This document shows positions 14,485 through 16,352 of a DNA stretch of 64,000 nt, one piece after another; position 1 is the stretch's first letter; the number at the start of each line of letters is the position of its first letter. The notes under the pieces are model-generated. The model did no database searches, was not told the DNA's origin, and worked only from the letters and a program-made list of their open reading frames with translations. Origin of the DNA: an uncultured Chloroflexia bacterium (GTDB lineage Bacteria > Chloroflexota > Limnocylindria > QHBO01); assembly GCA_963767985.1 (NCBI GenBank), contig CAVYGE010000005.1:188453-252452 (forward strand), read 5' to 3'. The position numbers and the translations under genes were made by a program.

Positions 14485-15273
14485 GCGCCGAGGTGGTCGA
14501 GCGCGTGCTGCGCTCGGCACGCTACCGAGACGTGGACCCGTCGATGCTGGCGAGGGTGGCGGCCGAGGAGCAGCCTCGTGCCCGGAACGTCGACGACGCC
14601 GTCAAGCGCGTGAAGCGTCGCCTCCATCAGGCAGTGGGCGCGTTTCGCGGGACCGAGCGGGCGGATGTCATGGCCGCGGCATGGGACGGCGATCTCGATG
14701 ACGCGACGTTCCGGAGTGCCTGCGTCGACGCCCTGCGGGCCCATGCCTCGACGCGCGAGCGCCTCGGTGCCATCGAGCAGCTCTACCCATCGATCTGGGC
14801 GGTGACCGGGGTTCCGCGTTGCGTCCTGGATCTCGGGTGCGGGCTGAATCCCGTGACGCTGCCATGGATGGGCCTGTCGTCCGACGCCCTGTACCTGGCG
14901 TCCGATGTCGATCGTCGGCCGCTCCGAACGGTCGCGGCATTCCTCGAGCTGGTCGGGCAGCCGCACCGCGTCGAGGTCCGCGACCTCGTCGCCGATCCAC
15001 CCGACGACTCGGGCGGACGTCGCCCTCCTCTTCAAGCTCGTGACCACGCTCGATCGCCAGGACCCGGACGCAGCCGAGCGTCTCGTGGCCGCACTGCGCG
15101 TGCGGCATGCCGTCGTCAGCTTCCCGGTCCGATCGCTCGCCGGGCGTGGCAGGGGCATGGAGCGCACCTATCGCGCCCGACTCGAGAGACTCGCGTCGGG
15201 ACCGCGGGTCCGCGACGTCGTCGAGGTCCCGGTGCCCGGGGAGCTGCTGGCGGTGATGACGCTCGATGCCTGA
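14481..15273 (+). CDS. Rmt/ArmA/Sgm (FmrO family) 16S rRNA m7G1405 methyltransferase-like protein (frameshift near 15012)
   Basis: KRRLHQAVGAF, HASTRERL, VLDLGCGLNP, ALLFKL, VVSFPVRSLAGRGRGM, all characteristic of the FmrO family; overlaps rsmI and tgt. Confidence 0.85.
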
Positions 15274-16352
15274 GCCGCTGACGACGAGGCGCGGAACCCT
15301 CGCCGTGCCCACGTTCCTCCCGGACGCCACCCGTGCCGGCGTTCGCGGCCTCACCAGCGACGACCTGCGGCGCATCGGCATCGAGGCGGTGGTGGTCAAC
15401 GCCTTCCATCTGCTCCGGCGGCCCGGGCGCACGGGTCGTGCAGGCGGCGGGCGGCATCCATCGCTTCATGGACTGGGACGGGCCGATCCTGTCCGACTCC
15501 GGTGGCTTCCAGGTCTGGAGCCTGATCCGCCAGGACCCCGACCGCGGGGTCATCCGCGACAACGAGGTCATCTTCCGCGAGCCGGAGACCGGCGAGAAGT
15601 GGAATCTCACGCCCGAGCGGATCATCGGGCTCCAGTTCCAGCTCGGCAGCGACATCGCGGTCTGCCTCGACGACTGCACCGATGCGGAGGCGCCGGATGC
15701 CGAGCAGGAGCGCTCGGTCGAGCGCACGGTGCGCTGGGCCCGACGCTGCCGCGTGGAGTTCGATCGACAGCTGGCCGAGCGGCGCATGGACGACCCTCCG
15801 CGCATCTTCGCCGTCGTCCAGGGTGGCGGATCCGAGACGCTGCGCCGACAGTGCGCGCAGGAGCTGGCCTCCATCGGCTTCGACGGTTACGGCTTCGGCG
15901 GCTGGCCGCTCGACGCCGACAGCGCGCTGCTGACCGACCCGCTGCGCTGGGTCGCCGAGTCGCTCCCCGCCGAGGCGCCCAAGCACGCATTGGGCATCGG
16001 CCGACCCGACCACGTCGTCAACGCCTTTGCGCTCGGGTATTCGCTGTTCGACTGCGCGCTCCCGACCCGCGATGCACGCCACGGCCGGCTCTACGCGTTC
16101 CGGCCCGGCTGGGCCGATCGGCGCCCGGCGCCGGGCGACCACTTCTATCGCGCGGTCAGGATCCACGACGCGGAGCATCGCGTGGCCCACGAGCCGATCG
16201 AGGACGGGTGCGACTGCCCGCTGTGCTCACGCCACACCGCCGCCTACCTCCACCACCTGTTCAAGGTCGGGGACCTCTCGGCCGAGCGGTTGGCGACGAT
16301 GCACAACCTGCGCTTCTACGTCCGGCTGTTCGAGCTGCTGCGCGCCGGCTAG
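15266..16352 (+). CDS. tgt: tRNA-guanine transglycosylase-like protein, divergent (frameshift near 15425)
   Basis: DSGGFQ, LDDC, VQGG, HALGIG, FDCALPTRDARHG, CDCPLC...MHNL zinc site. Confidence 0.85.

Follow-up and report, generated by a model that had tools for sequence, protein, structure and literature searches.

A divergent tRNA-guanine transglycosylase paralog linked to Rmt/FmrO-type 16S rRNA methyltransferase genes in an uncultured Chloroflexota bacterium

A TGT paralog in an rRNA methyltransferase operon

The stretch of DNA studied here, 64,000 nt of contig CAVYGE010000005.1 from an uncultured Chloroflexota bacterium (the window, within which all positions are given unless another contig is named), carries a gene for a protein resembling tRNA-guanine transglycosylase (TGT; the canonical bacterial enzyme is called Tgt below). 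This TGT-like gene is the last of an operon ordered rsmI-fmrO-tgt, in which the first two genes encode 16S rRNA methyltransferases of the RsmI and FmrO/Rmt families (Table 1). Our comparisons make it likely that the protein is a TGT of non-canonical type whose function is coupled to that of Rmt. That it is, more precisely, a catalytically competent member of a paralogous TGT clade working with Rmt/FmrO and RsmI on helix 44 (positions 1402-1405) in the decoding centre of 16S rRNA is in our view an even bet.

The genome has a canonical gene for tRNA Tgt as well, which makes the window gene a paralog. This other gene lies elsewhere (C6:785350-786405), scores 469 bits with the Pfam TGT profile and 444.7 bits with TIGR00430, and encodes the usual motifs FMPVGT, GGLSVGE and FDCVLPTR. 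The canonical gene directly follows queA (queA-tgt pair, C6:783511-786405), whereas the window gene has no queA beside it, its neighbours being fmrO on one side and a convergent SIS-domain gene on the other. An exhaustive search with P0002, an intact ortholog 87% identical to the window protein, returned a graded series of homologs, yet motif extraction split proteins with F[LM]PDAT, GG[WY]P[LI]D and PTRDARHG from canonical proteins with FMPVGT and GGLSVGE. A maximum-likelihood tree built from 116 proteins placed 34 of the 37 PDAT proteins in one clade, which also includes one N-truncated protein lacking the motif region and within which plasmid copies are nested. The score of a clade profile is likewise bimodal across 201 Chloroflexota genomes: 39 have a protein at 440 bits or more, and canonical TGTs reach 357 bits at most. 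Most of the clade-bearing Chloroflexota genomes also hold a canonical tgt copy. Members of the clade are 33-60% identical to the query, and the window protein has their signature, with Asp at position 45 of Zymomonas mobilis TGT (Zm numbering), Trp-Pro at 231-232 and an acidic residue at 234. Against the TIGR00430 cut-off of 306.75 bits, the two pieces of the window protein score 261.5 and 36.6 bits, P0002 314.6 bits and P0003 301.2 bits.

A sister branch occurs in metagenome-assembled genomes (MAGs) of the candidate phyla radiation (CPR; contigs L018, L020, L021 and L026; proteins P0132, P0137 and P0195), where PDAT is kept and GGR[HP] replaces GGWP. It may supply the sole TGT of those small genomes. 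When subfamily members without an FmrO neighbour were checked for another rRNA enzyme, no consistent partner emerged, one of them having RsmI upstream; their neighbours include DUF11 surface proteins, a U32 peptidase, pyruvate kinase, a CAP protein and an AraC regulator, the first three of these being found beside the CPR genes.

Coupling to FmrO/Rmt and RsmI

FmrO is present in all 39 clade-bearing Chloroflexota genomes (38/38 if one unpublished genome, G038, is left aside) as against 3 of the 162 others, each of these three with a fragmentary or stop-containing match, and it was found in none of 14 control genomes. The clade gene and fmrO lie within 1.5 kb of each other on the same strand, in either gene order, in 36 of the 39. 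Among named genomes, an FmrO homolog stands directly downstream at 16 of 25 clade loci and at none of 55 canonical tgt loci. The 25 are spread over Anaerolineae, Roseiflexaceae, Dehalococcoidia, Chloroflexia, Firmicutes and Latescibacterota, and about nine of them have RsmI close by. The partners are also found joined in single polypeptides: P0126 (628 aa) is a fusion of TGT-like protein and FmrO, P0142 (710 aa) one of an RsmI-like TP_methylase and TGT-like protein, and G038 has a fused frame too. Two tandem FmrO-family genes directly adjoin the TGT-like gene in some Chloroflexota genomes (G076, G148 and G184).

In the window, the two pieces of the partner score 132.7 and 68.3 bits with the NCBIfam profile Rmt_gen (NF000466, cut-off 250), and its intact ortholog on contig L005 scores 197.6 bits, likewise below the cut-off. 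The match to Pfam FmrO is clear, and from family and gene context the partner is assigned a putative specificity for G1405. Methylation of this residue to 7-methylguanine (m7G1405) causes aminoglycoside resistance.

A plasmid search with P0002 recovered clade members in three rmt settings on clinical plasmids, all with the PDAT/GGWP signature, 46-52% identical to P0002 and flanked by IS91-family or IS26 elements. One stands beside rmtB2 on the Providencia plasmid p12100-NDM, another beside rmtD2 in Klebsiella pneumoniae 2964TF, and the third on plasmid pKP13f of K. pneumoniae Kp13, between rsmH and rmtG, with a short open reading frame (ORF) for an S-adenosylmethionine-dependent methyltransferase following. 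The rmtB2 cassette also holds a metallophosphoesterase gene (L086 5173-5982) between the tgt-like gene and rmtB2. Some clade members, including the rmtB2, rmtD2 and rmtG copies, are named "tRNA guanosine(34) transglycosylase Tgt" at NCBI. This is likely an over-propagated annotation: databases call clade members Tgt because their scores straddle the TIGR00430 cut-off. The only mention in the Kp13 genome paper is of "a putative tRNA ribosyltransferase CDS" upstream of rmtG (PMC3904158).

The base pocket

The original prediction, made from the letters of the window, described a TGT with an intact catalytic apparatus and an altered specificity loop, and its motifs FLPDAT, DSGGFQ, LDDC, GGWPLDAD and FDC are all found where it placed them (Table 1). 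We mapped the pocket by sequence alignment to Z. mobilis TGT, in which the chain numbering equals the literature (Zm) numbering. The catalytic Asp residues and the zinc site are retained as predicted (D102, D156, Q203, G229/G230, D280, R286, R289 and C318/C320/C323/H349), and the window protein differs from the Z. mobilis enzyme by V45D, G46A, L231W, A232P, V233L, G234D and E235A. The confident AF2 model of P0002 (pLDDT 95.1) can be overlaid on Z. mobilis TGT with a Foldseek TM-score of 0.86 and a root-mean-square deviation of 2.1 Å. A predicted complex of the intact TGT-like protein with its FmrO neighbour scored 0.00, which gives no verdict, and we used it neither way.

Residue frequencies in 30 clade members and 78 canonical TGTs separate what is conserved from what is replaced. 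Invariant in all 30 are D102, Y/F106, Q107, N70, D156, C158, Q203, G229/G230, D280, R286, R289 and the zinc ligands. At Zm 45, Val is replaced by Asp in 30/30 clade members and 0/78 canonical proteins; at 231, Leu by Trp (29/30 against 0/78); at 232, Ala or Ser by Pro (30/30 against 0/78); and at 234, Gly by Asp (25/30 against 2/78). Position 287 is Asp or Glu in 30/30 clade members, with Glu in 7/78 canonical ones, and Met260 has become Leu in 24/30 against 7/78. The Glu at 235, kept by 66/78 canonical TGTs, is lost from the clade and replaced by small variable residues. The substitutions at 45, 231 and 232, near-invariant in the clade and absent from the canonical TGTs, are not a matter of chance.

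In canonical Tgt the amide of Ala232 reaches N7 of guanine through a water molecule, and the Leu231/Ala232 peptide, held by Glu235, flips so that its carbonyl faces the aminomethyl group of preQ1 (PMC3660597). With proline at 232, which lacks an amide hydrogen, and with Glu235 gone from the clade, this guanine/preQ1 peptide switch cannot operate there. Read from the alignment, the pocket is rebuilt on the side that meets position 7 of the base, with Pro232, Trp231, the loss of Glu235 and acidic residues at 45, 234 and 287. The Watson-Crick and sugar edges of guanine are predicted to be still read, the change being limited to the position-7 face. The added aromatic ring and negative charge would suit a guanine that is positively charged, or substituted, at position 7.

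An altered pocket in a competent enzyme, as originally proposed, is thus supported at the level of residues by the clade-invariant nucleophile, guanine-edge contacts and zinc site together with the replaced position-7 residues. A different base substrate, also proposed, is plausible from the same position-7 change. Its framing as a choice between preQ1 and queuine on tRNA is doubtful, however, because the gene is a paralog held alongside a canonical tgt-queA pair, because it is coupled to Rmt/FmrO and RsmI, and because queC, queD and queF were not found in the genome. The likelier difference lies in the RNA target and in a position-7-modified guanine, not in a queuine/preQ1 switch.

Supply of 7-deazaguanines and a possible second tRNA enzyme

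Besides queA next to the canonical tgt, our search for que genes found a QueT-type transporter gene (C1:12461-12946), and it found no match to queC, queD, queF or YhhQ in this 84% complete assembly. Of five good genomes with a clade gene, four had no QueC match either, among them the two of the same genus (96% complete). Synthesis of preQ0 or preQ1 by the cell itself is therefore not a requirement of the clade. The organism apparently relies on salvage for its queuosine precursors, and salvage of 7-deazaguanine is possible for the clade as well.

A salvage lifestyle of this kind, with QueT present and the de novo genes not found, lends something to the view that the protein is a second tRNA-guanine transglycosylase acting with another salvaged 7-deazaguanine (queuine, preQ0 or another) and standing beside rRNA methylase genes by co-regulation only. 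The bacterial Tgt fold, the contacts to the RNA backbone and a score not far from the cut-off of TIGR00430 fit such an enzyme, as do the CPR relatives without an FmrO neighbour. We nevertheless regard it as unlikely. Co-regulation leaves unexplained the complete co-occurrence with FmrO, the occurrence of both gene orders, the two kinds of fusion and the co-capture with rmt genes on plasmids, and the genome already has its canonical Tgt to act on tRNA. Known queuine-using TGTs, moreover, are changed at residue 233, not at 231, 232 or 235 (PMC3660597).

Proposed RNA target and base

If the clade enzyme is instead a partner of the methyltransferase, its RNA target would be 16S rRNA, at or beside G1405, an assignment for which we find the case evenly balanced. 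The sequence around this site in the organism's own 16S rRNA (1399-1409) is standard: CCGCCCGUCAC. In the mechanism that we propose, Rmt/FmrO would methylate N7 of G1405, and the Trp/Asp-lined pocket would bind a position-7-modified, probably cationic, guanine as leaving or entering base. The simplest candidate for this base would be the m7G made by the partner, because N7 is the atom that the partner methylates and also the one that the rebuilt side of the pocket faces; salvaged preQ1 would be the alternative. The m7G would serve as leaving group or, less likely, as incoming base. Following standard TGT chemistry, Asp280 would attack C1', a covalent ribosyl-Asp intermediate would form, and a second base would then enter. 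Recognition of m7G by the clade enzyme is a possibility that we hold tentatively. It is speculative, and sooner to be doubted than assumed, that the clade represents the first RNA transglycosylase acting on rRNA, exchanging m7G1405 after Rmt at the aminoglycoside-binding site.

Several points weigh against an action on rRNA. To our knowledge rRNA transglycosylation has not been described, and it was not found in the literature searched; nor, beyond the single line on the gene upstream of rmtG, was any link of a TGT to Rmt or to G1405. ArmA, RmtB and RmtC give m7G1405 and resistance without any tgt, so that the pair is not obligatory for methylation. The clade keeps R286/R289 and the dimer-interface residues Tyr330/His333 of Tgt, and P0002 and P0003 score close to the Tgt equivalog cut-off; because of these retained features and scores, tRNA is still allowed as a substrate. 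The QueT-type transporter in the same genome means that salvaged preQ1 could be the incoming base, no FmrO neighbour was found beside the CPR sister-branch genes, and the TGT-like copy in the window carries a frameshift (see below).

The same coupling would also suit an eraser or repair enzyme that takes m7G, or damaged ring-opened m7G, out of 16S rRNA and puts plain guanine in, making the Rmt mark reversible or protecting the decoding centre. Such an enzyme would need no 7-deazaguanine supply, in keeping with the queC, queD and queF genes not found, and an acidic and aromatic pocket would suit a cationic leaving base. We consider it quite unlikely, however, since a writer and an eraser in one polypeptide or operon would make a futile cycle, and since Pro232 takes away the NH that reads N7 of the incoming guanine.

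Gene layout and frame breaks

The three genes overlap at their ends, the ATG of the fmrO-like gene lying over the rsmI stop (ATGA) and that of the TGT-like gene over the fmrO stop (ATGCCTGA). Nothing else in the genome matches TIGR00096 besides the rsmI gene, whose start codon is our choice. The original prediction had treated positions 15266-16352 as a single gene and missed a one-base insertion at about 15428. The ORF list and the DNA give two frames there, the first ending in NAFHLLRRPG and the second starting from ARVVQAAGGIHRF, and intact homologs of about 360 aa run unbroken across the junction (...LLRRPGARVVQAAGG...). The extra base lies within the run CCCGGGC, where it cannot be pinned to one position. 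A +1 shift near 15001-15008 divides the fmrO-like gene in the same way, its two frames being recovered by tblastn with the intact L005 ortholog.

Table 1. Genes of the operon and motifs of the TGT-like protein, in window positions.
Feature	Positions	Strand	Remarks
rsmI (16S rRNA C1402 2'-O-methyltransferase)	13621-14484	+	TIGR00096 213.7 bits (cut-off 167.9); first gene of the operon
FmrO/Rmt-like 16S rRNA (G1405-N7) methyltransferase gene	14481-15273	+	Pfam FmrO 120 and 57.6 bits on two pieces; G1405 specificity as argued in the text
TGT-like gene, N-terminal 54 codons (frame 1)	15266-15427	+	Pfam TGT 31.8 bits, profile positions 8-57
FLPDAT	15314-15331	+	FMPVGT in canonical Tgt
Extra base in CCCGGGC (15422-15428), frame shifted +1	15428	+	Homologs continuous there
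TGT-like gene, 307 codons and stop (frame 2)	15429-16352	+	Pfam TGT 284.2 bits, profile positions 59-337; TIGR00430 261.5 bits
DSGGFQ	15495-15512	+	
LDDC	15666-15677	+	
VVQGG	15813-15827	+	
GGWPLDAD	15897-15920	+	GGL(A/S)VGE in canonical Tgt
FDCALPTRDARHG	16047-16085	+	Starts with FDCALPTR
CDCPLC	16209-16226	+	Zinc site
MHNL	16299-16310	+	His zinc ligand

With its own frame and that of the adjoining fmrO-like gene both divided, the TGT-like gene might be taken for a dead pseudogene with a real frameshift. About ten single-base frame breaks, however, occur in the nearby 15 kb or so, in otherwise conserved genes of 8500-19200, as determined by tblastn of intact L005 proteins against the window. 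Besides the fmrO-like and tgt-like genes, those broken include hutU, a SIS-domain gene (three breaks), a lactamase-B gene (two) and a DUF8575 gene. The breaks were counted from tblastn frames, the DNA alignment to relatives (77% identity) being too divergent for indel counts. Since these shifts also hit the neighbouring genes, the break in the TGT-like frame is most likely a long-read homopolymer or assembly error and not gene decay. The assembly (7 contigs, 84% complete) looks like an unpolished long-read one, in which split gene calls are to be expected throughout the genome. Neither frame segment contains a stop codon, and identity to intact orthologs is 88% at the protein level against 77% in the DNA. 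Decay is accordingly very unlikely, and we set the pseudogene aside as an overall interpretation because frameshifts are so dense in the housekeeping genes around it. Similar fragmentation is seen in a related contig, L004.

Around the operon lie histidine-utilisation genes, all on the minus strand, for an FTCD-type glutamate formimidoyltransferase (12640-14040), hutU (urocanase, frameshifted; 17526-19209) and hutH (aromatic ammonia-lyase; 21974-23500). A gene for an ECF-type sigma factor is found at about 20692-21183.

Comparison with known systems

The TGT family can yield partner subunits, QTRT2 of eukaryotic TGT being an example, and the fusions and adjacency with FmrO could suggest a non-catalytic RNA-binding partner or scaffold of the methyltransferase, but this is hardly credible, since all catalytic and base-binding residues are invariant among members only 33-60% identical to the query, which is unexpected for a scaffold. 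The fold is common to the eukaryotic QTRT1/QTRT2 enzyme as well, the window protein scoring 182 bits to QTRT1 and matching QTRT2 in its C-terminal part only. Unlike QTRT2, it has its catalytic residues intact.

Archaeosine TgtA and DpdA belong to the same superfamily and share the base-exchange chemistry, which they carry out on nucleic acid outside tRNA position 34. Membership in either family was tried and rejected (TgtA, 78 bits against a cut-off of 350; DpdA, 23 bits against 200). The window protein differs from them in having no PUA or other C-terminal domain, and there are no dpd genes nearby. The TGT enzymes known to us all have tRNA as their substrate, except DpdA, which modifies DNA. 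That the present clade is tied to an m7G1405 methylase by operon, fusion and co-occurrence is what suggests base exchange in rRNA; if true, this would be a way of modifying the ribosome not known before.

One of the closest known systems is bacterial Tgt (EC 2.4.2.29; Z. mobilis, Escherichia coli; TIGR00430), with which the window protein shares 35-37% identity and the (beta/alpha)8 barrel with its zinc subdomain, superposed as described above. D102, D156, Q203, G229/G230, D280, R286/R289 and the CxCxxC...H site are common to both. The clade departs from it by V45D, L231W, A232P, G234D, S287D/E, M260L and the loss of Glu235, and by an insertion of 10-15 residues after the LYAF strand. The window gene, for its part, lies beside rsmI and an Rmt-type gene, not beside que genes, and coexists with a canonical Tgt. 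An annotation problem is also exposed, in that clade proteins straddling the TIGR00430 cut-off are named as ordinary Tgt.

Close as well are the plasmid tgt genes beside rmtB2, rmtD2 and rmtG, which belong to the same clade, carry the PDAT/GGWP motifs and likewise stand next to a gene for a G1405 methyltransferase and to rsmH or rsmI. The plasmid copies were captured into Enterobacterales by IS91/ISCR elements, whereas the window module is chromosomal, includes the genome's only rsmI and comes from a soil Chloroflexota MAG. Plasmids of Klebsiella, Enterobacter and Providencia carry the gene along with rmtB2, rmtD2 and rmtG, labelled "Tgt" and ignored, and it may affect the expression or the fitness cost of pan-aminoglycoside resistance. 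If rRNA is indeed its substrate, a hitherto unseen modification of 16S rRNA would also be travelling with rmtB2, rmtD and rmtG in clinical isolates.

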